Of a DNA stretch of 20,000 nt, positions 1 through 20,000 are shown one piece after another. A program made the position numbers and the translations under genes. Each line of letters starts with the position of its first letter. The stretch's first letter is position 1. The notes under the pieces were generated by a model, which worked only from the letters and a program-made list of their open reading frames with translations, did no database searches and had not been told where the DNA came from. Source of the stretch: Tricharina praecox (lineage: Eukaryota); NCBI RefSeq assembly GCF_024521635.1, contig NW_026250421.1, positions 740,954 to 760,953 on the forward strand, written 5' to 3'.

Positions 1-1464
1 TCGCTGTCCACCCCCGCCTTAAGCAGCTGCCGCACCAATTCAATCCTCTTCTCGTGCACTGCCTTGTGTATGATTCCAATCCCTCCTAATGTATCAATGC
101 TTGCCCCCGCCTCTAGTAATAACCTGCAGATGGCCTCGTTGCCATCGTAGGCAGCGAGTGCAAGCGGCGTTCGCCCTTCGGAATCAACCTTCTCGATGTC
201 TGCCCCTGCCCCTGCTAATAACTCGCAGATGTGCTCGTGGCCCTCATAGATAGCGAGGGCAAGCGGCGTTCGCCCTTCGGAATCAACCTCCTCTATATCC
301 GACCCCATCGCTAGCAAAGTTCGAACTATGTAATCATTGCCTCCATTAATTGCATTATGGATTCGACCCCGCGATGACCATTTCATTTTCAACGACCGCG
401 AAGACTGCCGCCTGCTTGACGGCGGTGGGCTCATCTGAACGGCTTTTTGTCCCATAAATCTGATAAATGAACGGGAAGTTCGAACACCGAGATCTCGGAA
501 ATTGATAGGTCACCCAGGCTCATGTCTGAAAGCATTGACCAGCTCCCATCTTCACCTGGATTACTCATGAAGGATGACGACGATTGATGATCTGCTCTCA
601 TACCCCAGAGTTGCGCCCGCTTGTATGGTCTCGAGTCTCTCGAATCCACTGTGAACGACGGTAACAGAGACCAGATTGACCGGGTGGATCGGGTGGAACC
701 GATGCTGAAGGATGTTTCTGTGCTCTTAATCTATGCGGTGTCGTCTGGGATCGGTCGGAAAGCGAGGTTTGCGACGCCAAATTCGCTCGTGGGATTAACG
801 GAGGACGCATAAGTGGATCCATTTGATTGATGTGCAATGAGCCCTCGAAGCTGCACCGAGATTACGTGGTTGGAATCCAGAATCTGTGCCATGATCTCGT
901 GCAACTTTCCGAGACTTTCAGTGGCCTCTGCAGCGGTGTGACTGAGAAATATCAGTTAGCCATGCTTGTGGCGTCAATGAAAATACCGACTTACCACTGA
1001 ATTATACCCAGCATCAAATTCAAACTCAGCTTGTGCCGCTGAAGGTCCTCGATGACTTCGGTGACCTGCGCCTCTTTCCACGCCGCCCATTTGACCCGCT
1101 CACACATGAGTCCCGCTTTACCGGCTGGCACACTCGGATCGACAATCCCCACCACCTCGCTCAAGTACTTATCCAGACTGGAACAGACCAAGACACCTCC
1201 GCTCAAGGTTGCGATAAGATGATGGACGGATATCATTGTTAATCTGTTCTGTTGCCGGCTCTTGCTTTGACCGATAACAAAGAGTTGAACTTCACAGAAG
1301 ATGACGTTCATGTCTTGCATCTCGTCTATGACACAACTAATGGACTCTGGCGCACCCTTCGCTTTCGCTCCGCAGTCGTAGACACCTTTGAGCATACTGA
1401 TGATCTTTGCCGAAATGCCGATAAGCCCGGCGATCGAGGCGACGACTGACAAAGGGTCCGACAT
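1..1464 (-). pseudogene. HeLo-like (fungal STAND N-terminal domain) + ankyrin-repeat protein gene, apparently disrupted; 3' end lies beyond the left window edge
   Basis: Exon 1 is 1464-995 (MSDPLSVVASIAGLIGISAKII...ERVKWAAWKEAQVTEVIEDLQRHKLSLNLML, typical HeLo-like N-terminus). Intron 994-942 has GTAAGT, GCTAAC branch and CAG. Exon 2 continues in frame (CHTAAEATESLGKLHEIMAQIL...) but has TAG at 733-731 (DDTA*IKST), then a family-typical segment (SRPYKRA...SWSMLSDMSLGDLSISEISVFELPV) ending in TGA at 433-431. Ankyrin repeats (GRTPLALAIYEGHEHICELL; GRTPLALAAYDGNEAICRLLLEAGA) follow in a different frame from about 434 to 1. Confidence 0.8.
160..289. repeat. Nucleotide-identical 31-nt segments in adjacent ankyrin repeats (99-nt period)
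   Basis: GCAAGCGGCGTTCGCCCTTCGGAATCAACCT occurs at 160-190 and 259-289; both encode VDSEGRTPLA on the minus strand. Confidence 0.9.
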
Positions 1465-3289
1465 TGTTCTTTCGGCGACGAATGTAACCGATTCGGATTC
1501 GGCAGCGGCGACTGGACGAGGGTAGATTTGGGTCGTGGGATCTTGTTATGTTTGCGAACACGGCCAGTTCGATGTAGATGGCACACTATTGGCGGCTAGT
1601 TTGCTGGGCGGGCTTCGTTCTTCCGAAGTGCGATCGATTCACGTCTTCGAAGTCGCCTGAGATGACGGCGTAGCAGGCGGAGATAGTAATAATTGTGTCG
1701 CGAGTCGTTGGGAAGTTCTGGTGGTAGCTGTGGGTTCAGGTGAAGGGTATTGAGGAAGAGTTGGCCACGTTCAGAGCCCCGCTCTCAGCGGTGGCGCGGC
1801 GAAACACATTCGACACTGCCTGCAGCCAATCATGCATGGTAGCTGCATGGCCCGCAGGACAGTAAGCAAGCTTCCAGGTTCCTGAAAGGGCGACGGCGAA
1901 GTGTTACGCTTCTAGAGAAGCAATCTTGGAGCATGACCAATGTTACCATATTTTTTTTTAGATGGCCAATCGCACGCATCATAGGTTCGTCAAGAGATAG
2001 CCATTCGCCCTGCAGGCGTTGGTAACGGAGGATCAAGAGTCTGAGCTGGAGGAATTCAGTTATGTTTTTGATTGCAACCAAGGGAAGATGGTATAGCCAA
2101 TGGTTGTTTTTGTATGTACTTTGGGTGAAGGCTTCAAGTCGTATGTGCAAGCATGGTGGGGTGGAACGGCTTCAAGTGGTTGCGAATCACTAATCATCAC
2201 TCGCTGATCCTCGTTCTTGCTGGCTTTATTTCCGCGAGCTTTATGTTTTGGTCATCTCGTTTTTATTCTTTCTTTCTGTCTTTCCTTCTATGCGCGGATG
2301 GGCCGGGCTGAGAGCAATAGGGAACCCACATCGAGCTTGCGGCCAGCGGCCGGAGACAGTAGGGTAGAACTGGATGTGTATACAACCATGATCTGATAAG
2401 GTCGAATGCCATGATGATAAAATAAAACAAAAAAAACACCAAAAGAGTCTACGATCAGACGCCTTTACTCAAGCTCCATTGGTATACCTCAGGGCTAATT
2501 CGGACGCACTTTCTTACGCCTCCGTTTCCGTAGCTGAATCCACGCCCGGTACACAGATAAATTCGAGCGCACCCAACACATGAGCGGACAAAGAACGAAG
2601 TGGGACCTACTAGAAGGATCTCACACATGTCTCTATAGAGTACCGTCTCCATGACGAAATAGGATAGTGGTTGCTATCCTACCGAAGCCCATGTCAATTG
2701 CAATAGCACCGAATATTGTGAAGTTACTTCCACTTTGATACTGTGATTCCTGAGGTTCTCGGGCTGAACGGTGCACATTGACCGATATGATTCCATCCTG
2801 ATGCCTACCTTATATTACTGGTCCATTGCCGTTCCTGTCGCCCAAGTGCTGACCCATACCATTCAAACTCAGTTCCCGAGTCTACCATGTCCATCTTTTC
2901 CTCAAGCGCCGAGGTGGTAATGTTCCACGTTCACCACAGCATGACAGCCTTGAGCTCCTTAGCGTTCGGACGGTGTGCATTGCATGCCCCATCCATGATA
3001 TAAAACACCGATTCGCGATCTCCCCGCACCACGGGCGAAGTGTTGCGAGCTACGTAGAGTAACTTCACCTCCCCCGGTGGCGCATATATCATACCTTAAA
3101 CTCCCCTGCGTGATAGGTGGCGGTACACATCGTCACGACCGCCAATAAACTCTCCTCCGCGAACCGTGTCCAGAATCCACTTCATGATGACGTCTCCTCA
3201 ACCCGACGAGAGCAAAACCAAACCTTCCTGCCCTGCACGTACATACTCTCATTGCCACCTCTCCACACCTCACCTCCCCACCTCCCTAC

Positions 3290-4895: not shown

Positions 4896-6656
4896 TTAAG
4901 CGGCTCCGTCATCCTCGTCGTCGTCCGAACTCTCAAAGTAATTGATGGCGGTTGAGCTGCGCTGGCTCTTTCTCCTATTCGGATCCTCGTCTCTCAGACG
5001 CACGGCTTCCCTGCCCTTCGATGCACGTTTGAGGTCTTTCTCACGCTGCGCCGTGGCTTCCGCTGCCGATGGCGTGGCGACTGTGGGGAGTCCGGCGTTA
5101 CCGCCCGCAGTGAAGGCGGGCATAGGAGCTGCGGCTGTGGTGGTCATGGTCGAGTCGCCGCTTCCACTCACCTGGAAGAAACTAAGCAGGGTTCGCTGCT
5201 GCAAAGGCTGCATGCTCCTCTCAGCCGCAGCCTTGTCACCGGCTCCGTGAGGCTGAGGGGGGGCGGTAGTGTGAATGAAACGCAATGGCTGTATCGAACC
5301 GGAAGGTAGCGGTGTGGGTGTGATCGAGGTGGCGCTAGCTCTACGACCCTGCGATTTCGCCTTTGCCTTGACTTTGGTGGCGGTTGGGGAGAGGGGTTTC
5401 GAGACAGAACGCGTAGATGACGCGGAGCGACGACGCGTTGCACGAGCCTCCATGGTAAATTGGAATGGGATCTGGACGCGGCTCGCATTCTCGTTCGAGG
5501 GGGCCGTCAAACCAGGTGCTACCGGTGGTGCCGACGGGGCTTCTGAGGGAATTACGATCGAGGATGCCCGGGAGCGCGACTGCAAACGGGGAGGCGGAGG
5601 GTGACGAGAGGCGTCAATCGTTTGGTCTGGCGCGACCCCTGTCGGCGTGGGTGCAAGAGGCGCGGTGAATTCCATAGGAACATCTTCCATAACTTCCTCC
5701 TTCGTCACCGCTTCCGGTGGTGATGCCGCCGCAGGCATCGGAGCCGCCAGGGCATAGGGCTCTCCGTTCCGGTGCGGCTGCTCCTGCTGGGGCAGTACGC
5801 CAGCCACAGCCGTCTCGGTGGGTATCGCATTGTAATTGATAGATGAGTACCCTTCCATAGCCGTATCTGGCTCCTCCTTCACGAAACCATGTTTTCCATT
5901 CTGGCCATCCACCTGTGACCACATGCTGCCGACCGAGCCGGCATTCAAAGTAGTGGCAGTGGAGGTGACCGGAGGATTCCTCTCTGATCCTGTAGGAGAA
6001 GGGGTCGGCTGGCCGAATATGAACTTATTCTCCAGCCCCCCCGGTGACCACGATGATTCCTCCCAACCCGTCACCGACGGTGTAGCCTCCATGTCCCGTT
6101 CCATGGACATCGATCCTTCCGACGATTGGTCAACGGAGCCACCCTTCATGAACTTTCCGTTTCCTGCCCTTTTCTTGCCGGCAATGTCCTTCCAGTTATT
6201 ATAGCTCTTGTCGGAGGCCGGGCCCTTCGGTGGCGGTGGTGGATGCTCGGTCTTCTGCTTCTTTTCGAACTTGCCGCCTTTGCCCCTACGAGCCTCCTGC
6301 ATTGCCCGCATCCTCTCCCGCTTTCTCTTGGTTTCCTCGTCCTTCCTGCGGCGTTCATCCTCTCGTCTCTCCCGCATCCTGCGCTCTTCGTTCATGCGGA
6401 GATTTCTCTCCGCCTGTTCCTTCTCGAGAATCTTCGCCAAGTCCTCTGGCTCGACCTTCAGTGCACGCTCGAACGGTTCCAGCATGCGAAGGATCAACGT
6501 CTCCCGATTCCGCCAGCAGATGTCGCACTTCAGGTCACGCTCGGATGATGGATCGACGTGCATCAGGTCGTGGCCGCACTCGGCGAGGCGGTCGGGGTTT
6601 GTACGTAGGGTGCGCAGCGAGCGACGGCGGTTGCCGGCGGCGGTTGGGGGCTCCAT
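4896..6656 (-). CDS. Hypothetical, largely disordered protein with a Cys/His motif, charged coiled coil and basic NLS-like stretches; start uncertain (first in-frame ATG 6656; frame open upstream to about 6938)
   Basis: Uninterrupted frame of about 2 kb. ECGHDL...KCDICW motif, E/R/K-rich helix (EERRMRERREDERRRKDEETKRKRER), KKRAGNGKF and KVKAKAKS basic clusters, acidic C-terminus. No family recognised. Confidence 0.8.
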   Translation of the reverse strand: MEPPTAAGNRRRSLRTLRTNPDRLAECGHDLMHVDPSSERDLKCDICWRNRETLILRMLEPFERALKVEPEDLAKILEKEQAERNLRMNEERRMRERREDERRRKDEETKRKRERMRAMQEARRGKGGKFEKKQKTEHPPPPPKGPASDKSYNNWKDIAGKKRAGNGKFMKGGSVDQSSEGSMSMERDMEATPSVTGWEESSWSPGGLENKFIFGQPTPSPTGSERNPPVTSTATTLNAGSVGSMWSQVDGQNGKHGFVKEEPDTAMEGYSSINYNAIPTETAVAGVLPQQEQPHRNGEPYALAAPMPAAASPPEAVTKEEVMEDVPMEFTAPLAPTPTGVAPDQTIDASRHPPPPRLQSRSRASSIVIPSEAPSAPPVAPGLTAPSNENASRVQIPFQFTMEARATRRRSASSTRSVSKPLSPTATKVKAKAKSQGRRASATSITPTPLPSGSIQPLRFIHTTAPPQPHGAGDKAAAERSMQPLQQRTLLSFFQVSGSGDSTMTTTAAAPMPAFTAGGNAGLPTVATPSAAEATAQREKDLKRASKGREAVRLRDEDPNRRKSQRSSTAINYFESSDDDEDDGAA

Positions 6657-7750
6657 TGCAGCGGCAATAGCGGGGGAGAAGTCAGCGTCGGTGACGGCGG
6701 CGACGGCGGCAGCGGCGGTGGCGGCGGTGCCAGCCAGGACGGAGTCGGGGGCCGGAGAGAGAATGACGGGCGGCGATGGTGTATTGGGGGGGATGGGTGA
6801 GAGTGGCGCTAGATGGCGATGGTTAGGGGTGTGGTGCTGGCCATGCAACGGAGCCGCGTTTTCGGTGAGGCAGCACGGGTAGCGAAGAAACGAGAGAACT
6901 GCACGACAGAAGAAGAAAAATCGTTCGGATAGAATTGCTCACAATTGCAGAGCGAGAGCTCCAAGAGCAATTTTGGGTGTAAGCTCTGGTTGTGGGTTGT
7001 GGGTTGTGGTGTTGTGGTGGAATGGGAAGAGATGGAGGTGTGTTGAAAGAAGAAGGAAGGATTGGGGGAAGTTATACCTAGTCGGCGAATTGTTCTGGTG
7101 AGAGTCATTATTTCTTCTTTCTGGCTGGTCCGCTTCCTTTTCTGACCTCCCTGTTTCCGGTCCGCTGCTCTTTTAATGTTTTAATGCTTTCTTTTTTATT
7201 TTGGCCGACTGTTGCGTCGTGTCGAGCCAGCCCGCTCGTCCTTCAACGTTGCCAGCAGGTCTCGTTCATTCGGGTCGTCACTCCGGCCCCTTTATGGCCG
7301 TGGCCGTGGCCGCCTGCTCGACCCTCATCCCGGCCACGCCCTTGTTCCACCTGCCGTTGCGTAGATCATGGCGTGCACACATATAGGGCTGCTGTGGCTG
7401 CTGTCTGTACTCGAGGGCCTTCCTTTGGCCCACAAAGCACAGCCTGATGGTGACGGCGGTCGATTAAAACACCGCCCGCATCAGGCGCGAAGAAATAAAA
7501 AAGGCCGGTTCTTTCCACCCCGCCCATGCCCCGCTCGCTCGCCCTCGTCTCCCGCTACGTCGACTGGCTCGCACCACTCCGTTTCTTCCAGCCAGTGCAA
7601 CGCGAAGATGGTCGAGCTATAGCCCGACCTACGCATATAAACCAGCAGCCAAACAGAAGGCATACCTGCCTTCTTGCCTAGATGCTACCTAATGCACAGC
7701 GGCCACCCACCACGCCGAGCGCCCCCACAGATCCTCACCGCCGGGGACAC

Positions 7751-7794: not shown

Positions 7795-8300
7795 TGTTGG
7801 CATGGTATGGCTACACGTTGCAGCATGGCAAGCGTCCCGTAAGACATCTACCTTTGTCTTGAGAAACCGCAGTCACCATTTTAATGATGCTCTCCCTAGG
7901 TGTAGAGAGCTCTCCGCTGTCAGTCGACAGCGGCTCTCGGCTAGCGGCCACCGACTTGTTTTGATCAAAGAGACCTCGTCCCTCCACCCCGGACGGTTTC
8001 TGGCAAAAAGCCCGCATCCGCCCGTGTGCATGCAAGCTCGACCAACCCCAAGCACCGTCGAGGCTCTTGGAGCTGGATAAAGCCACCACACATCTCCCGT
8101 TTCCCTCCCGCATCCCTATGCGATTTTGATGCCACCGTCACAGACGCTGCAGCACCAGAGCTCCTGCTCGCAGGAAGGCACGCACCCCCCGTGCCGCGAA
8201 TCAAGTTCTAGTGGACGTTGATTCCCTTGCCGTCCAGCCAGCACGGGCACAACAAGAAACGAGCCATCGAACATCCATCATCATCGTCGTCTCTTTCGCT

Positions 8301-8643
8301 GTCCTGTCCTGTCTTGTCTGTTCTGTCTGTCCTGTCCTGTCCTGTCTGTCCTGTCCTGTCTTGTCTGTCCCGTCTGTCGTGTCCTTTCCTGTCTGTTCTG
8401 TCTGTCCTCTTCTGTCTTGTCTGTTATGTCTGTCCTGTCTTGTCTGTCCTGTCTTGTCTGTCCTGTCTTGTCTGTCCTGTCTGTCGTGTCTTGTCTGTTC
8501 TGTCTATCTTGTCTGTCCTGTCTTGTCTGTTCTGTCTGTCCTGCCCTATCTGTCCTGTCTTGTCTGTTCTGTCTGTCCTGTCCTATCTGTCCTGTCTGTC
8601 CTGTCTGTCCTGTCTGTCCTGTCTGTCCTGTCTGTCCTGTCCT
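8301..8643 (+). repeat. TGTC-based low-complexity satellite (TGTC/TGTCC/TGTCT/TGTTC units) ending in (CTGTCCTGT)6
   Basis: About 340 nt nearly devoid of A on the + strand. Perfect 9-mer array at 8587-8640; recurring higher-order block GTCTTGTCTGTTCTGTCT. Confidence 0.95.
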
Positions 8644-8753
8644 GGCCGAATTCGGCGTTTGATCCGCCCGAGCAGATGAACGACTGGATCGGAGCAACAC
8701 GACACAAGAACCCGGCGATCTCACCAATAGCTCTATCACGCGGCCCAGGATGT

Positions 8754-8777
8754 ACTCCACTCCACTCCACTCCACTC
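8754..8777 (+). repeat. (CTCCA)n pentanucleotide microsatellite
   Basis: ACTCCACTCCACTCCACTCCACTC. Confidence 0.8.
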
Positions 8778-11565
8778 TGGATCGAATGCCCCCACAACAA
8801 ATTACAGCCGGCCACAAGCCCGCAATCCAGCCATCCGGCGCCAACCCTCCACCCTCCACCCACCACCACCCGACTCACGTGCAACACTTCACTTGCGAGG
8901 GCCTGTACGTGCATAAAATGTATGAAAATCCTCAATATCGTGGTGCTGGCCTCGGGCAGTGGCCGGAGGATCGGATCATTCATTTACCTGATCACCGTCC
9001 CCGTGGTGTCAATGTTTCATACCAGAGTATGCACTAGCTGCAGACACGTCCGCTTCAGTACGACGATGCCGGGAACGGAACCGGAGCTCACATCACGGTA
9101 AGTTCTTGAGTCGAGTCGAGTCCCCTTCCCCACTGCACGCAACTCCCGCTAACACCTGAAGCAGCCTTTATCCGCTGCAGGCACATTTACCGTGCAACGG
9201 CACCCGGAGAGAGGGCCGAAGACACAAAGTCGGTCGCAGATTGCTGCTTGTAACAGTAAATGAGGCCGTAGTGCTTAGTGCTCGGCGATGTTCAGAGAGG
9301 AAGCATCGTGGATTTCCACATTGCACGGTGGCCAGAACGGTGGTTCGTCGACCATGCCGGTGGTGTCGTCGGTTTCCTAGGCGATCAGATCCAATGCTCC
9401 TCCATTTGGTGGGCAGCTGAACTCTGTTCCCCATGTGTTCGTTTTGCCTTCTGTGCACCTTGCGAAATTCCTAAGGGCTCAGTGCGGCGAAGCCGATTCA
9501 CCCGGAAGCGACGCATTTCCGAGAATTCCATGGCTCCCACCCCAGGCGCCGGTGCAGAGAACTTCAAATTCTGTGTCTCTTTCGACTACAGCTATGGTGA
9601 CTCCGTGCACTTACCAGCTTTCGGTGCCATCCATCGTGTCGGCACGTTCTCTTGGCGAGTGTGAAGCATCGGGATCTCAGAGCGACTGGCTGGTGATTCC
9701 CCATACAGCAAAGCGGACGCCAAGGATGGGAACATAGGTACGTTGGGATGAAATGATCGAAGGATCGACGGCCTCAGCGATTGCTTCCCCTACGGTTGTG
9801 ACTTTCAAGTTTCCACGAGCTTTGAAAGATTGCCCTTGGTGTCAAGCAGTCGATGACGTGGGTGTTCCCCGGTGGAGGAGTAACCGCATGCCGAAGCAGC
9901 AATTTCTGGTCTGGAGTCTTCCAACGACAGCAAATCGCTTCTCCTTCACAGGTTGGACGGAGCAGGTCATCAGACCCTTTGCAACCCCGGGCTGGTGTTG
10001 AATCACGGATGCTAACTAGCAGTCTATGCCAGAATCCTCCAATCACGGGCGTATCCAGATGTCCCCAACCGTACCGTTGGTGGACACGATGTTGGTCTCC
10101 TTGAAAGAATGCTATGTACCAAGCGAATCCAGCCGGGCTGTCACCAGCCACCGTCGGATGTTTTGCTGTACATGTGGCCAAGTGACTGCGCCACGGCTCT
10201 ATTGTAGAGCCACTCCATCACCACGGCCCGGGGTGAAAGAACCGGCGTCTCTAGAGTAGAGTACAGCCAGTCGAGCTAGTCCCATTCTGTCGTGCTGACT
10301 GATCAATTTGCCAAGCCCCCTGGTCATCTATCATCGATCATCAACACACTGGCGAGACCCGAGGATGTAATGAGAACTTTTTCGAGCTCAATGGGGATGT
10401 GGTTTTCGCTCTTGGAGTCTCCTCGCCGGTTTGTACGGGTGTGTCGAGGCGCCTGTTAGCCGCAGAAGCGGGTTTAGCGCGGTAGTCAGTTGTTTAGGTA
10501 TCCTCGCTTGCTCCTCTCTCGTTGTGTGAGCGATTCGCTGATTTCTCCTTCCTGGAAACATGTTCAGCAGTGAATCCATCACAGATGCCAGACATCAAGA
10601 TATGGTACGCGGTGGAACGTCCCTGGTGAAGCCGAGATGTGGATGCGGATGTGGCTTCGATGTCAATGTGGCTGAGGCCCGAGCTGTAGAGCTTTTGTGA
10701 TGTGCCCGGAGGCCAGAGCTCCAGGGCATGAACTGAAGGCGAAGGGCAGAGTTCTGCTCGTCGAAGGTTTGAAGGATCGTGGGAGAAAAGAAGAAGGTTA
10801 ATTTCGTACTGGCAAGAGAAGCGAGAGAAGGATGATGAAGAAGAGAGCTGCAGCTCTCGACCCTGGACTCCCGGGCTGGTTGACTTTGCCAAGGCGGCCC
10901 TGCAGTGGGTTTGCCAAGTCGCTTCCAGGGACGAGGCTCCTTCGTCTCTGGATCGCCAAGCCTTTATCCCGTGACGATCCTGCAGGTTTCGTTCATGTAA
11001 TCCTCGGCTGAATTCTTGTCTATTCTTATCACCGCGAGCTCCAAGTCACTACCCAGCACTCGTCAGTGCAATTGAGCTCCTCTATTCACGTGTCAGCCCA
11101 GTCATGATCTACCTATCACAGTCGAATGCTACGATGACCAAGCAAAAAAAAGCAACGGACAAGCCTTAGTCATCCGTTGGCACCCAGTCATGCTCCGACG
11201 CTTGGGTCCTTGCCTTGGCTGACCACACTTCTGTGTCGATAGGTACATACCAGGAATCGAAGCCAGGGATCGGAATGGGACCGGGACATCATTAAGGTAC
11301 CCTTTGGAGCCGGTCACTTGCCCCAAGAATGGCTTCAGAAGACTTATAAATTGACGGATGTTCACGGGCGGAAAGAAGCGTCAAGAAATCCAAGCGTCAC
11401 ATTTTTCCACATGGCCTTACATAGAAATATTAGACAGAACATGGTGGCCATCTATCTCAGAAAAAAAATTCAGGAACGCCCGAAAACGAAAGTGATTATC
11501 CCAAACGCCGTCGAAATATGATGCACGCCTCGCAAACTCCTCCCACATGCCCGCCTGCGCCTCCA

Positions 11566-12758
11566 CTATTTCCCGTTCATCTTCCACGTGCCCATCCACT
11601 TGCCCGCAGCAAATATCCACTGCCCGGCGACCACAGGCTCGCCCTTCTTGACCCTATCCACCAGGCGGTGGAGGGTTACAGTACCACCGGCATAGTCCTG
11701 CTTCTGGTTCTCCTGTACGGTCTTTGGGTTTGGCGGGAACGGCTCGCGGTTGACCGGCTTGGTCACGTTGTTGTGCGCGTCTGCTACTTTCATTGGGTCG
11801 CCCTGTTTGGTGCCGGTCAGCAATGGTCTCCCAGGTGGAAAAGCAGAGGGAAATGGGAACGGACCTGGTCAACGAAATCCAGCAGCACGAACCCGCCCTT
11901 CCGGCCCCACTCGCTCGTACACTTCTTTACGCCGTCCTTCAGGTTGCCCACCCCCGTGTCTCCATTGAGCGTGGCTGAATAGGTATCATTCGCCGCATAA
12001 AGACCCAAGGTCTCACTGATAGTTCTGTACAAGAACCTATTCATGAACCCCATCCTGTCGGTCGCCAGTACGTCCTTCAGCAGAGCCTGTCCCTTGAACG
12101 CCGACGGTCTCGTCGCATAGCAGGTATAGTTCGCCGGATCGAAGACTTCAAAATCAGTTTCGAAGATGTAGTCAAACTCCGGGAGGAGGTAGGGGACGGC
12201 CTTGACGTCGGCGGAGGTGCTAATGAAGGATACCAGCCGTTTCTTATCGAGGATCATGGACTGCAGTGTAGGCCACTGTGCGCCGGTCTCCGGGACGTAC
12301 GCCAGATCCGCCAGACCCGCGGCGACGAACGCCTCCGCGATGCGGGTGGGCGGGATCTTGCCATCGTTGACCAGGAGCAGGGTGACGACTTCGTTCTGGT
12401 GCTGGCGCATCCAGGCATTGATGCCTATCAACCAGTCCTTGAGCAATCCGGCGTCGAAGATGCTGCACGTGGTGTGGCACAGGCGGATCTCGTTCATTTC
12501 GAGGTGGATCTGCGACTGCAGTAGTCGGATCCCCGCCGATAGCTGGATGCTCGCGTTGTGGAACTGGTTGCCGCCCGTCGCGAAACTGTTTTTGGCCGTC
12601 CGTACGAAGGCAGAGTTGTGCGCGCCTACGTGCAGGATGGCGTTGTAGGTTACGTTGCAGAGGGACGGTGAGGAGTTGCAGGCGGTCACGTCGTAGGCTG
12701 CGGCGGCGAGGTGGACGAGCCCGAGGCCGGCGGACAGGAGCAGGCTGGAAAGACGCAT
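11566..12758 (-). CDS. Secreted PLC-like phosphodiesterase (PI-PLC X-domain superfamily); 2 exons (12758-11865, 11802-11566), about 376 aa
   Basis: Signal peptide MRLSSLLLSAGLGLVHLAAA; CNSSPSLC; catalytic-His motifs GAHNS and LCHT; QLSAGIRLLQSQIH; NEVVTLLLVN; FVLLDFVD. Intron 11864-11803 (GTCCGT, GCTGAC, CAG) joins in frame to GDPMKVADAHN. Confidence 0.92.
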
Positions 12759-13664
12759 GGCGGATGGTTCGGTTCGTTTCGTGCGGACGAAAGTGGGACG
12801 ATGGAAGGAAAGGAAAGAAAAGGAAAGAGAACGAGATATCGATCGATAGAAGTGCGAATCCTGTCTCCGGCCTTCTAAGTTGCTTTGTCGTCCTCAGCCC
12901 TAGCTGAGCTCAGCCCCACCTAGATCAAACAAAAATACCCCATCACCACCAATCCTGTGCCTGTGCTGCCACAAAGCTCAAACAGTAGAGTGAGGGGTGC
13001 CCAACTAGAATGCAGCGTGTTCGAGGTATCAAGGTATCTTTTCCAATCTCTAGACAAATCAGACATTGGAATAACATGCGGATGCTATTTCGGGCAGGGG
13101 CGACGTAAGGTGGACCCCGGCAATGGGCACTGGGCACCGGACATGATTGGGTACTTACTAACAACTGGGCACCGGGCTCTGGGCAGGGCTTTGAGGAGTT
13201 GCTGTTGAAACTTGAGCAGGCATGCGGAACACGCTAAGCTGCGTGATCCCTAACCCTGGGTGTGAGATCGTCTCCGGAAGTGGAGGCGAGACAGTGACAG
13301 TGGCAGCGGGGGCGGGGGGGTAGAGATGCTTCGCAGAGATGTCAGACTGAACGGGGGTTGCTGGAGATTCGAGAAGATCCGGTGTGATGAATACCATCAT
13401 CGGGTAGAAGTCGTGATGGAAATGACAAACGAACGCCGCGACGAGCATGGAGATGAGCCAATCATGAGCACGCATATATAGCACCTATAGCTGTCTGTTG
13501 TACACACATAGCTCCCCGCAACCCCACCATGTAGAGTGGATACAGCAGGTGTAGGCTAACCCCACCTCCGGTAGATATCATTGTGCCATCAAAATATCCC
13601 TTTCCCCTCAATTCTCATTCTCCTCCTCACTGCAGTTACGATTCACGCCGATCACGCCCCAGCA

Positions 13665-14432
13665 ATGTCTGCCTGTGCCTCCTATTTCTCGTCCTTCCTC
13701 CCGGAAACACTCGCAAAGTACTTCACGCGCAACCGCACATTCCTCACGCTGCTCCTGACCCCGCACCTGCTCCACCGGCTCTACGGAAACTACACGCTCT
13801 TCCACTCCCTCGGGCCCAGCGGAGTCCCACGGAACCCAATCGGCTGGGCGATCTCCTCGAGCCTCAAGCTCGTCACTCGGGAGACCCTCTCGACGACGCA
13901 GTACAGCTTGGATGGGCCTGCATATCTCGCACCTCTCCCCGCTCGAGCGGGCGAGCGTCCAACCAAGAGCTGGCATCCGGTCCCGCAGCGGCAGATCACG
14001 CAGCTGCCGTCGGAGGATGTGATCGAGGCGGTGCAGAGCGCGCTGCTGGAGATCCACGCGGAGTTCTACGACGTCACGGAGCAGCGCACGAGCGAGTTCG
14101 AAAAGCACGGGCAGGCGCTGTTCGTAAAGAAGGATGTGCCCGATGAGGGTGTGTCGAAGGCTGTGGTCAAGACGAAGAGGGAGGTCGCGCATGTGCACGA
14201 GACAGACGGGAGCGTGCATGTGGTTATGTCTTCGCATGCGGATTGTAGGGATGTTGTCGAGAAGGGGTGGGGCGAGAGGCATCCGCTCGCGGGTGTGGTG
14301 CTCGAGAAGGAATACCTCATGATTTATGCGCCGAGGGACTGGGATGAGGTCAACGTGGTGAGGGGTATTTTGGAGGCGGCGGTCAGGGGGGCGGTGGGGA
14401 AGGCGAAGCCAACGCCCGGACAGTGGAACTAG
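13665..14432 (+). CDS. Fungal luciferase (Luz)-family protein (Luciferase/DUF5519-like domain), 255 aa, intronless
   Basis: Motifs NYTLFHSLGPSGVPRN, LPARAGERP, PQRQITQL, TSEFEKHGQALF, TKREVAHVHETDGSVH, KGWGERHPLAG and IYAPRDWDEVNVV occur in the same order as the blocks I recall for Neonothopanus Luz. ATG in AGCA-ATG-T context. Confidence 0.85.
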   Translation: MSACASYFSSFLPETLAKYFTRNRTFLTLLLTPHLLHRLYGNYTLFHSLGPSGVPRNPIGWAISSSLKLVTRETLSTTQYSLDGPAYLAPLPARAGERPTKSWHPVPQRQITQLPSEDVIEAVQSALLEIHAEFYDVTEQRTSEFEKHGQALFVKKDVPDEGVSKAVVKTKREVAHVHETDGSVHVVMSSHADCRDVVEKGWGERHPLAGVVLEKEYLMIYAPRDWDEVNVVRGILEAAVRGAVGKAKPTPGQWN

Positions 14433-14525
14433 AAGAAGCATCACAGAGAGAATCGCATCATAGATGGAGATGCAAACCGCCCCCACCCCATAGAATATAC
14501 ATTATTTTTGCGATACTATGCCTGT

Positions 14526-15764
14526 CTAGTGGAATTCACATTGCCAGCCCCCATCATGCTCGTACCATCCACCATTAATCAGGTCCAATTCCGTGTCCCT
14601 CCAGTATTTCTCCTTCCCGTCGTGCTTAGTCTTCATATCCAAATCGCCAATTCCGCAATCGATACCGTCCACGCCAGGCGCATCCATATCGACTCTCAGA
14701 AACACCGTCAGATCCCTAACGGTCATGGCATCCATGAAGGTATCGGGGATGCTCCCCAGCGGCCCCTCCGGATCCAGCCTAATCTGAACCGCCGCAAGAA
14801 TGGGCATCAACTCGCTCCGCACCAGGAACGCAACCACCTTCGCCTCCAACCTCTCCCGCTCAGCCTCCCACGTCGTACCAGCTGGCAACACAAACCTCTT
14901 AGGTAGCGTTCCGGGTATCAGGAACCTCACCGCGCGCCGCACCCTCTCCGGCTCCCCCGACGCAAGGTCAAGCGGACAGAAACCCCGCCCACCACCCTTC
15001 TTCAGCCTCAGCGCACAGGTCCGGCAGTGCTTGGCGCCCCGGGGCGCCGACGGGCTCTGCACCACCCACTTCGGTTTGAACTCGACTAGCAGCTGGCGCT
15101 CCGTGTGCGGCGACATATCGGCGACGAGGAACGCGTGCGACTCAGTGGTCTCGAGGTACATCCCGGCGCGTTTCTGCGGGCGCCCGTTCCGAGCCTCGAG
15201 CTCCCGTAGCCGCACGTTTTCGCGCACGATGAGCGACGGTGGGAGGCGGACCAACTCCGTGGCTACCAAGAGATCCCGGGGGAAGAGGGGGAACGCAGTA
15301 GTCGTAAGGTAGGTGTATGCGGCTAGGTTGGGCTGGGCCGACGGTAGCGTCTTGCGGAGTCTCAGCAGACGGTTGGCGAGCGAGATTGAGGGAGTTTTGT
15401 CGGCGGAGTCGGGCTGGGCAATGCGAAAGATGATGTTTGCTGCGCCTTCGGCGAGGTAGGAGAGGGAGATTTCGAGCGGAAGGATGGGGTCAGTGGTCGT
15501 GGGGTCAGTCGTATTCTTCGTCGGGGCAGTTACGGAGGCCGTCATTGGAGGCGGGGTAGAATATCCGGTGAGGGTAGAGTCGGAGGCAGCAGCGGGCACG
15601 ACGGTAGCGGTGGAGGTCATCGTTTCGTTCGACGGCGGATGTGCGGAGGAGCGGTGTGGTGGTGGCAAAGGTGGAGGTGGTCGCGTGAAGAGGCGGGCGA
15701 CCAGAGTCAGGGCGAGCGCAGCCACGAGTGTCGCGACGAGCGGGAATAGGTCCCAGGAAGCCAC
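14526..15764 (-). CDS. IPK1: Inositol-pentakisphosphate 2-kinase; start either GTG 15764 (412 aa) or first ATG 15620 (364 aa)
   Basis: Ipk1 motifs YLAEGAANIIFR, LLRLRK, VEFKPKW, CRTCA, FCPLDL, AMTVRDLTVF and DLDMK in the expected order; intronless. Confidence 0.93.
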   Translation of the reverse strand: MASWDLFPLVATLVAALALTLVARLFTRPPPPLPPPHRSSAHPPSNETMTSTATVVPAAASDSTLTGYSTPPPMTASVTAPTKNTTDPTTTDPILPLEISLSYLAEGAANIIFRIAQPDSADKTPSISLANRLLRLRKTLPSAQPNLAAYTYLTTTAFPLFPRDLLVATELVRLPPSLIVRENVRLRELEARNGRPQKRAGMYLETTESHAFLVADMSPHTERQLLVEFKPKWVVQSPSAPRGAKHCRTCALRLKKGGGRGFCPLDLASGEPERVRRAVRFLIPGTLPKRFVLPAGTTWEAERERLEAKVVAFLVRSELMPILAAVQIRLDPEGPLGSIPDTFMDAMTVRDLTVFLRVDMDAPGVDGIDCGIGDLDMKTKHDGKEKYWRDTELDLINGGWYEHDGGWQCEFH

Positions 15765-16493
15765 GATTGCGATTTATCGAGGTTTTTCCCGTATGTCGGG
15801 AGAGAATTTGGTTCCTGCAACTTTGCGGGGTGTTATAGCGAGATGGAAGAGGGGCGACGACCGAGGGGCAGAGGTTATCGCTAGAGGGAGGGGCGACGGT
15901 GAAGACGCAAAATACCGTAGAAAAGTGGGGAGCGAGAGAGGGATAGAAAGGGAGAGAGAGGGGGAATAGAAGGTTGATCTTCCCCGGGGAAGCCCCCATC
16001 ACCCTCGCGCTTCGCCTCCGGTCCCTTGCTCCTCCAACTGGACGGGCCGCTGTTAGCGATAACCAACTAACTAGCTGAGCGTTCGTCTGAGTCCAAATTT
16101 TTCGCACAACACCCACGGAGCTTCCACCGAGATGCGCAATAGCGTTGTGTAACGCCACCATGGGGATCCCTCCCAAGACCACACAAGCTTCGAGGTGCCG
16201 AAAGCACGCAACTCAAGCGAACGAACGGGCGCGAAGCTGGGGAGGGGGGGCTGCGGATGACTGCCAGCCGGGGATTTACGAATCTGCGCCGCATTCTTCA
16301 GTCAGTATGCGAGGGCGAAACGGAGAAGTGTACTTTTGGGTGCTGCTTCTCCGAGTTGAATCACAAGGCCCACCCAAGTAGGTAATGCAACCGAGCGCAG
16401 GATTCCTTCGATTCCCAACTGCCAGTCGTCGGAGACTCTTATCTGCGGCGTGATATGTTAAGCAGCACTTCTTGAAGACCAACCACCGTTGGG

Positions 16494-16664
16494 GATTTGC
16501 GACCGGTTTCACTGCTACCATCATGGGTAGTACCTATGGTCACACCGCTTTCAACTTTTAAACGAGCGTGCTTCGTCTCTCGTCGACCGTTCGATTTGCG
16601 ACAGGTTTCACTGCTACACATAGTCACACCACTTTCAACGACTGTGCTTTGTCTCTCGTTGGAC
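16494..16664. repeat. Degenerate two-copy tandem duplication (about 99-nt first unit)
   Basis: GATTTGCGAC(C/A)GGTTTCACTGCTAC...GTCACACC(G/A)CTTTCAAC...GTGCTT(C/T)GTCTCTCGT starts at 16494 and again at 16593; the second copy has internal deletions. Confidence 0.8.
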
Positions 16665-18811: not shown

Positions 18812-19978
18812 ATGATCGCGGCTTCATATATACTCCTGCTCCTTGCCGCCGCGGTTTCCCGCGGCAAAGCCTGCGCTCTGCATGCCCGCTCGACGGTGGA
18901 ACGAAGGGACTCCCCAACTGGACAATGTGGCGCGGCGAACAGTGGCTATACGTGCACCGCCAGCACCGGAGCGAATCAGTGTTGTTCGCCAGCTGGATGG
19001 TATGGACGCCCTTTACTTGCAAAATCCCGTGGAGCTATGTACTAACCAGGTCAAAGGTGTGGGGATTCGACAGCACACTGCGGTATGAACTTCCGATTTT
19101 GGGCCGAGCTTCCCTACTGTTGCTGATGGTAATTCTCCAGGAACCGGATGTCAAAGCGCATACGGAGTAAGTGACCCCGATAGTGACCCACGGGGGTGGA
19201 ACAAAGAAAAACAATGAAATCTAACATGTGATAGACTTGCAGTCCCGCCGCAGCTGAGCCGACTTTGCCAGCAATTAGCACCCGCTCAAATCTTGGGAGC
19301 GTGCCATACGGTAGGCATACACACACCCTCACTTCCGGGACGACGCTGATTATAGTATAGGCTCGGAACTCTTTGCGTGCACGAAGGCGAATACCATTGC
19401 ACTGTACGTGTGCTTTTGCTCATAGAGTGTCACTCGCTAACCCACTTTAGTACCTTTGATGACGGGCCGTACTCGTACACCGCCGCGCTGCTGGACTTGC
19501 TGAAAGAAAAGGACGTCAAGGCGACCTTCTTCATAACGTATGACTCCCCTCATACCTTCCATCCAACGAAACTGACGCCCCGCAGCGGCAATAACCTCGA
19601 CAAAGGCGCCATCGACACCACCTCTACATGGAGCAGCGTAATCCAACGCATGTACGACGAAGGGCACCAAATCGGCTCGCACACGTGGACGCACGCCGAC
19701 CTCTCCACCGTGACCGAAAACACACGGCGCTACGAGATGATCCGTAACGAGCAGGCGTTCCTGTCCATTCTCGGACGGTATCCCACCTACATGCGGCCGC
19801 CGTACATCTCGTGCAATACCGCCTGCCAGACCACCATGGCAGCGCTCGGATATCACGTCATCATCTGGGATCTCGATACCGACGACTATAACAATGTTAC
19901 GCCAGAGCTCATCCAGAATGCTAAGAATAACGTCGATAACGCGTTGGCGGAGAATTGGGATTCCTATATGAGCATCGC
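18812..19978 (+). CDS. Secreted chitin deacetylase (CE4/NodB) with N-terminal CBM18 hevein-type domain; 3' end beyond the window. Exons 18812-18999, 19057-19082, 19141-19166, 19235-19310, 19361-19403, 19451-19537, 19586-19978
   Basis: Signal peptide MIAASYILLLLAAAVS. Spliced CBM18 reads QCGAANSGYTC...QCCSPAGWCGDSTAHCGTGCQSAYGTC. CE4 motifs LTFDDGP, KATFF, HQIGSHTWTH, RPPY and DTDDY. Every intron has a GT donor, CTAAC/CTGAC/CTGAT branch and AG; the next donor GTATGG is at 19979. Confidence 0.95.
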
Positions 19979-20000
19979 GTATGGCTGACTCTTCCGCCCC

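Follow-up and report, generated by a model that had tools for sequence, protein, structure and literature searches.

The window analysed here, a 20,000-nucleotide stretch of the Tricharina praecox genome (NCBI RefSeq assembly GCF_024521635.1, contig NW_026250421.1, positions 740,954 to 760,953), carries on its minus strand a gene for inositol-pentakisphosphate 2-kinase (IPK1) whose reading frame stays open for 48 codons upstream of its first ATG, at position 15620, as far as a GTG at 15764. We consider it moderately probable that leaky initiation at this GUG yields a minor, membrane-anchored isoform of the enzyme, while the AUG at 15620 yields the major, soluble one. The 48 codons would then be the local version of the N-terminal signal-anchor helix of Pezizales IPK1. 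The coding homology of the extension and the absence of an AUG from it are solid; the use of the GUG, the ratio of the isoforms, the topology and the target membrane we infer. What this proposal would add is a membrane anchor peculiar to one lineage of IPK1, with a near-cognate codon in place of its original start; the principle of dual starts is itself known.

Translated from the GTG, the minus-strand open reading frame (ORF) at 14526..15764 specifies 412 amino acids. Residues 103-392 match the Pfam profile PF06090 (inositol-pentakisphosphate 2-kinase) with an E-value of 3.8e-46 and 158.6 bits against a cut-off of 22.7, a near full-length match that spans profile positions 1-373 of 375. A protein search returned 141 matches, the best 120 of which were examined; among these, the best named ones are inositol-pentakisphosphate 2-kinases of Pezizales, the closest coming from Sphaerosporella (P0005), Wilcoxina (P0009), Geopyxis, Tuber and Morchella. 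The columns that are invariant in 17 Pezizales sequences (among them AEGAAN, EFKPKW, QSP.AP and C.P.D) are found in the protein of the window. By profile match, orthology, motifs and clade placement the gene is classed as a member of the IPK1 family, and 2-kinase activity on inositol pentakisphosphate (IP5) is predicted from that membership. Its parts, in window coordinates, are the following.

14526..14528, minus strand: IPK1 stop codon, from the reading of the ORF.
14589..15458, minus strand: inositol-pentakisphosphate 2-kinase domain, Pfam PF06090, residues 103-392.
15459..15617, minus strand: Ser/Thr/Pro-rich linker from Met49 to the kinase domain, predicted to be disordered (predicted local distance difference test score, pLDDT, below 50 at residues 36-42 and 44-89).
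15618..15620, minus strand: the transcript's first AUG and putative start of the soluble isoform, corresponding to Met49 when translation is read from the GTG; context gaaacgATGacc, with A at -3.
15621..15764, minus strand: 48-codon N-terminal extension, comprising a helix and a Pro-rich linker, without ATG and without AG; 23 of 48 residues identical to the ortholog P0002, ungapped.
15684..15755, minus strand: hydrophobic helix, residues 4-27 (WDLFPLVATLVAALALTLVARLFT), predicted signal-anchor; AlphaFold2 pLDDT 65-86, Kyte-Doolittle (KD) mean 2.14.
15762..15764, minus strand: GTG codon, context gcaatcGTGgct, within one codon of the Met that starts the helix of orthologs, in the alignment with P0004, P0006 and P0007.
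15774..15776, minus strand: in-frame TAA, three codons 5' of the GTG, from the reading of the frame.
15765..15908, minus strand: 5' leader upstream of the GTG, 144 nucleotides (nt), with no ATG in any frame; contig ends at 15908 and 15903.
15919..15972, minus strand: pyrimidine tract, 93% C+T, just 5' of the contig ends, from sequence composition.

The initial annotation of this locus had described 48 open in-frame codons 5' of the ATG at 15620, beginning at a GTG, and we reproduced them on the minus strand: they run from the GTG at 15764 to an ACG at 15621, with the ATG as codon 49. The TAA three codons before the GTG (15776-15774, followed by ATC GCA ATC GTG) and the strong context of the GTG, with A at -3 and G and C at +4 and +5, were recovered as well, and the peptide of the extension begins VASWDLFPLVATLVAALALTLVARLFTRPPPPLPPPHR. 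Because of the in-frame TAA, the frame is closed to any start further upstream. A scan of the sequence found no AG dinucleotide between TAA 15776 and 15618, and, together with the TAA in frame, this excludes a canonical splice acceptor for an upstream exon. The earlier claim that an upstream ATG exon could not be spliced onto the extension thus stands, and the contigs described below are colinear and unjoined across it.

The hydrophobic helix of the extension exceeds chance expectation and the openness of its frame does not. Openness of the 144 nt is unremarkable, given that 46% of mononucleotide shuffles stay open, and in this C-rich, stop-poor region a second frame is stop-free across all 96 codons (288 nt) of 15908..15620. 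The best 19-residue KD mean of the extension, 2.14, is the maximum in the whole protein, where the membrane-helix threshold on this scale is 1.6; no shuffle out of 20,000 attained it, whereas 154 did among the 23,340 stop-free 19-mers that the window contains in its six frames. The AlphaFold2 model, for which a 17-sequence alignment served as input, shows an isolated helix at residues 4-27 (pLDDT 65-86), a disordered segment at residues 28-89 (pLDDT mostly below 50) and a confidently folded kinase domain, with a whole-model mean pLDDT of 79.7. The G+C content at third codon positions (GC3) is 0.81 in the helix codons, compared with 0.50 in the leader and 0.48 in the Pro-rich half of the extension; three of four Pfam-supported reference coding stretches lie at 0.75-0.78 and the fourth at 0.54. 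Frame 0 is also the top-scoring of the three frames by codon usage in the helix half, weak support from a score built on only 622 reference codons.

The hydrophobic helix and Pro-rich linker reported at the outset are present, and the same helix is carried by orthologs. Among the 120 matches examined, 12 have a 19-mer with a KD of at least 1.9 located 5' of the AEGAAN kinase motif, and 11 of these are Pezizales orthologs (P0002, P0006, P0007, P0008, P0010, P0015, P0017, P0022, P0024, P0027 and P0033). The twelfth, P0066, was discounted as a helix carrier, as it looks like read-through of AT-rich upstream DNA (L011, L015). P0004 (KD 1.84), clearly the same helix, was added, which brings the helix-bearing set to 12 orthologs and the window. 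When the alignment is anchored on the basic residue that ends the helix, the helix Met of the orthologs coincides with the GTG of the window, exactly in P0004 and one codon off in P0006 and P0007. An ATG start was verified at the DNA level at four loci, L002 and L003 (P0006-like) and L005 and L006 (Tuber-like), from Pyronemataceae-like and Tuber-like lineages. Conservation of the extension, on which the initial annotation had made its proposal hinge, is thereby borne out: relatives keep it, with the same helix begun by Met. The codon differences within the extension number one synonymous and no non-synonymous between L002 and L003, and five synonymous and four non-synonymous between L005 and L006, both pairs being too similar for a ratio of non-synonymous to synonymous divergence. 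None of 321 candidates was a shorter protein fragment bearing the extension.

Outside this group the helix was not encountered. A library-wide HMMER search added 125 new representatives, from which 30 without a recognisable motif and 39 with fewer than 19 residues upstream of it were left out; such a helix occurs in none of the 56 evaluable ones, which belong to other lineages. Among the sequences examined, the membrane-anchor helix therefore looks like a Pezizales feature. Since the helix of the window is homologous to those of its orthologs, a pure chance origin is excluded. The charges around the helix are also consistent across the set. In the window the N-terminal flank carries a net charge of 0 and the C-terminal flank +2; the C-terminal flank (12 residues past the helix) has a net charge of at least +1 in 12 of the 13 helix-bearing sequences, and the N-terminal flank one of at most 0 in 11 of 13. 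By the positive-inside rule, under which the positive flank stays cytosolic, these charges would place the kinase domain in the cytosol. As possible targets, both the endoplasmic reticulum (ER) and nuclear envelope, proposed in the initial annotation, and the mitochondrial outer membrane would fit the features of the helix.

The nearest relatives differ in the state of the anchor. A maximum-likelihood tree of the kinase domain was built from 37 rows, comprising the window, P0002-P0030 minus P0021 (which has no motif) and 8 distant matches. In it the window falls within a Pyronemataceae-like clade with the topology (P0002,(window,P0003)), supported at 98/91 and 100/100, with (P0007,(P0004,P0005)) as the sister group. 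P0002, the nearest outgroup and known here from protein alone, has Val at the start position. Its extension has 48 residues, the same length as in the window, and aligns without gaps at 23 of 48 identical positions; the 7 differences in residues 6-26 are all hydrophobic or aromatic, and the KD of P0002 is 2.44. On the 5' side of the Val, alignment between P0002 and the window requires gaps of 3 and 10 amino acids, shows low identity and crosses a stop (the TAA). The tree path from the window to P0002, along which Val and helix are shared, amounts to 0.18 substitutions per site. As a guide to neutral change, the window and L001 (the gene of P0003) differ at 67 of 142 four-fold sites, with a synonymous divergence (dS) of 0.85-0.89. 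In simulations we let the 144 nt drift neutrally and excluded indels, a conservative choice. With the neutral p-distance set to 0.47, an identity of at least 23 arose in 0.2% of simulated sequences, a KD of at least 2.4 in 0.5%, and both together without a stop in 0.005%; the joint outcome of identity, KD and no stop arose in 0.18% at p = 0.35 and in 1.5% at p = 0.25. The simulation speaks for continued selection on the helix once Val occupied the start position, with the reservation that P0002 might initiate at an ATG further upstream. Of the relatives, P0002 keeps Val and an ungapped helix, and L001 has lost the anchor.

The transcript evidence comes from contigs of two sequencing runs, X1 and X2, which belong to two studies with two organism labels, and one of which may be the sample behind the assembly. 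The X1 contigs are colinear with the genome on 14300-15908 at a mean word depth of 532, and the X2 contigs on 14300-15903 at a depth of 411, with no splice joint in the gene in either. We take X1 to be RNA on account of a 90-nt GT..AG joint further upstream and a hundred-fold step in depth. Contig depth is 0 over 15928-16001 and 5-15 over 16076-16445. Three metatranscriptome runs contain next to none of the stretch, and two of them, X3 and X4, yielded no contigs on it. The abundant transcript thus appears to be unspliced over gene and extension and to reach at least 139-144 nt 5' of the GTG, and the possibility raised earlier that transcription starts downstream of 15764 is answered by contigs of two runs that extend to 15903 and 15908, about 140 nt beyond the GTG. 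No AG precedes the contig ends. The ends, the lack of an AG and the pyrimidine tract at 15919..15972 fit a transcription start near 15905; going by general knowledge of filamentous-fungal promoters, the tract is probably a core-promoter CT box. None of the three frames contains an ATG between 15908 and 15621, so that the GUG at 15764 is the first good-context start-like codon that a scanning ribosome would meet and the AUG at 15620 the first AUG. As a separate observation, X2 carries an extra base behind 15818, within the 5' leader, its only indel and only difference over 1.6 kb.

The second start is also widespread. An in-frame Met between helix and kinase motif was scored by script in 11 of the 13 helix-bearing sequences; Met44 of P0008 falls inside the kinase motif, so we count 10 of 13. 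Annotated orthologs without the helix (P0003, P0005, P0013, P0019, P0020, P0028 and P0029) begin at the equivalent place. Position -3 is a pyrimidine for Met1 and A for Met2 at the Tuber-like loci. A weak first start followed by a strong in-frame second one is the layout described for fungal dual isoforms produced by leaky scanning (PMC7049704).

These data suggest the following scheme. The ancestral gene would have had two in-frame starts flanking the signal-anchor, with the helix begun by AUG. In the clade of the window the first AUG would have become GUG with its strong context kept (A at -3, G at +4). GUG 15764 would capture a minority of the scanning ribosomes, which would initiate there with initiator Met-tRNA and make the 412-residue enzyme, with a short lumenal or outer N-terminus, a transmembrane helix at residues 4-27, a disordered tether of about 60 residues and a cytosolic kinase. 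Most ribosomes would leak past to AUG 15620 and make a soluble enzyme of 364 residues. The idea in the initial annotation that leaky non-AUG initiation gives two isoforms is thus upheld in part: the coding homology of the extension and the fact that only a near-cognate start is possible speak for it, and the loss of the anchor in the sister lineage speaks against it. More tentatively, and with real doubt on our part, Pezizomycete IPK1 may consist of membrane-tethered and soluble isoforms made from one unspliced mRNA, in a ratio tuned by the strength of the first start. The first starts would then form a series, from a weak-context AUG in Tuber-like species through a strong-context GUG in this species and P0002 to full loss in the sister lineage.

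Several findings weigh against this scheme. L001, from the sister of the window, has GCG at the start position and deletions of 2 nt and 15 nt; its helix frame no longer matches that of the kinase and terminates at a TAA lying 1 nt ahead of the main ATG, and the frame of that ATG meets two stops upstream. The anchor has apparently been lost at least once in the clade of the window, and this frameshift loss makes it dispensable there. The frame of P0002 is open to an ATG 66 codons further upstream, so that P0002 might use AUG. In the protein-only orthologs that come from metagenome gene callers, the initial Met could stand for a GTG or TTG codon. In the second, Pro-rich half of the extension, where GC3 is 0.48, frame 0 scores worst of the three frames, and RNA structure 3' of the GUG is not significant (z -1.53; 14 of 200 shuffles fold equally well). 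The runs X1 and X2 are labelled RNA by guess only, and contigs cannot fix a transcription start.

Many of these points would be expected if the extension were a relic, and this is the alternative that survives best. The AUG of the anchor would have been lost, either by a change of ATG to GTG or because an AUG further upstream disappeared and the TAA then arose; only the 364-residue form would be functional, the 48 codons would be 5' untranslated region that has yet to decay, and any GUG product would be noise. L001 displays exactly such decay, with frameshifts and a stop. The terminal branch of the window is short (0.06), so that a recent loss of function would show no decay yet, and with a neutral p-distance of 0.25 the frame remains open in 59% of the simulations. 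The lack of coding-like codon bias in the Pro-rich half, the annotation of several orthologs from the second Met and the upstream ATG at which P0002 could initiate also agree with a relic. What it accounts for poorly is that P0002 has in common with the window both the Val and an intact, ungapped, hydrophobic extension, for which the joint neutral probability is 5e-5, 0.0018 or 0.015 at the three p-distances (0.47, 0.35 and 0.25), whereas the DNA 5' of the Val is gapped and holds a stop. Nor would a relic be expected to retain A at -3 and G at +4 around the GTG, or a GC3 in the helix codons so far above that of the leader. We therefore regard a relic as possible and in need of serious attention, and on balance doubtful.

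The other explanations were rejected. An upstream ATG exon spliced onto the extension, or a chance open frame in a C-rich 5' untranslated region without coding history, could draw on the second frame that is open over 96 codons and on a spliced low-level transcript upstream (16075-16444); against these stand the in-frame TAA and the want of an AG, hence of a canonical acceptor, before the ATG, the abundant contigs that run unjoined over 14300-15908, end where no AG precedes and give way to zero depth at 15928-16001, and the homology of the helix to that of orthologs, and both ideas are very improbable. It is scarcely credible that the codon is really ATG and that the G at 15764 reflects a mistake in assembly or sequencing, or a variant confined to one isolate: one run may indeed be the sample behind the assembly, and this rival found no positive support, but X1 and X2 have no differing letter on 14300-15903 and both read G, not A, at 15764, which settles the base call that had been in question, and the related P0002 also has Val there.

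Leaky initiation at the GUG, if it occurs, would matter for the biology of inositol hexakisphosphate (IP6). Among other processes, phosphate signalling and mRNA export are under the control of IP6 and of the inositol pyrophosphates derived from it, and yeast Ipk1 acts at the nuclear periphery; a link of the enzyme of the window to Gle1 would be tentative. To our knowledge the site of IP6 production is poorly understood, and the IPK1 enzymes that have been described are soluble. Were the proposal true, the site of IP6 synthesis, at a membrane surface or in cytosol and nucleus, would be a regulated and evolving trait, and a lineage-wide anchored IPK1 with a conserved second start would be a natural system for the question of local IP6 synthesis. 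It would also be an unusual instance of near-cognate initiation that delivers a transmembrane anchor instead of a mitochondrial presequence. For annotation the consequence is more immediate, as an ATG-only gene model of the IPK1 of the window silently drops a conserved segment.

Some observations on the orthologs stand beside this argument. Public gene models of Tuber and Choiromyces are split between Met1, which includes the helix, and Met2 (P0020, P0024, P0028 and P0029), and the ortholog pairs P0013/P0015 and P0019/P0022 also disagree on the annotated start; the annotation of IPK1 starts appears to be inconsistent across Pezizales. In L001, the former helix now contains an ATG from which an upstream ORF of 34 codons (2976-3080) runs to 1 nt before the main IPK1 ATG. 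It is possible that this upstream ORF is a translational regulator born from a lost coding segment.

Around the gene, a low-level minus-strand transcript at 16075-16444 lies 5' of IPK1 and is not joined to it (X1 depth 5-15). It contains a 90-nt intron at 16284-16373, which reads CT..AC, that is, GT..AG on the minus strand, has a CTGAC branch-like motif and was seen both spliced and unspliced. Pfam gave no match for the ORFs of this transcript, which may come from a non-coding gene or one for a small protein. On its 5' side, at 16494-16659, there are direct repeat pairs of 25 nt (96% identity, 99 nt apart) and 27 nt (85%, 76 nt apart), which suggests a local tandem duplication. The convergent plus-strand neighbour at 13575-14432 has a product that matches Pfam PF17648, 'Luciferase domain' (E 2.3e-18), and its stop lies only 94 nt from that of IPK1. 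The RNA contigs continue past 14300 into this neighbour, and the 3' ends of the two genes probably overlap. Elsewhere, the edges of the window hold ankyrin repeats (6-509, minus strand, PF12796, E 6.9e-28) and a polysaccharide deacetylase domain (19356-19985, plus strand, PF01522, E 9e-30), and 8270-8400 is a repetitive low-complexity stretch rich in Val, Leu, Ser and Cys. The long ORFs at 4896-6938 (minus strand, 680 amino acids), 8130-9101 (plus strand, 323) and 11817-12893 (minus strand, 358) have no Pfam match, and Rfam gave 0 matches across the whole window.

Our findings can be set against several known systems. With the IPK1 family as represented by S. cerevisiae Ipk1, Arabidopsis IPK1 and human IPPK, the enzyme of the window shares the family profile, the motifs and the predicted kinase fold. 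To the described enzymes it adds an N-terminal hydrophobic helix and a tether of about 60 residues, found only in Pezizales among the matches examined. Among the papers listed by a full-text search on fungi, none dealt with an anchored IPK1 as judged from titles and abstracts, and a search on Ipk1 with the nuclear envelope and Gle1 likewise yielded nothing on anchoring. Signal-anchors that hold a catalytic domain in the cytosol include that of microsomal cytochrome P450, and Tom20 and Tom70 are held in this way on mitochondria. The predicted anchor resembles this type in its very short N-terminus, hydrophobic helix of about 20 residues, basic residues after the helix and Pro-rich hinge, and differs from it in having no sequence relationship.

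Regarding the start codon, a close parallel is cpc-1 (CPC1) of Pezizomycotina, which likewise has an AUG-less in-frame extension whose amino-acid sequence is conserved, as are A at -3 and G at +4 of its near-cognate starts (PMC5487733). Initiation at cpc-1 has been shown in vitro and by ribosome profiling, whereas the present case is read from the genome and its relatives; in addition, the extension described here is short, and most relatives begin it with AUG. Among near-cognate codons GUG usually ranks second in efficiency, and initiation depends on context (PMC5666671 and PMC5487733).

A further comparison is with fungal proteins that are dually localised through two starts (DualAUG and DualNCC), for which aminoacyl-tRNA synthetases and the yeast genes ALA1 (ACG) and GRS1 (UUG) are familiar examples. 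The arrangement proposed here has in common with them an upstream start that is weak or near-cognate, then a targeting segment and an in-frame AUG in strong context (PMC7049704 and PMC5666671). Swaps between weak AUG and near-cognate starts in such proteins have been reported several times (PMC7049704, section 20), as we propose for the clade of the window. The same source states that its authors found no enrichment for signal-peptide cases. In contrast to the DualAUG and DualNCC proteins, the segment in question here is a predicted transmembrane signal-anchor, not a mitochondrial presequence, and its GUG is a putative start. The known examples of dual-start isoforms being mostly mitochondrial, a case that delivers a transmembrane anchor would widen the mechanism.

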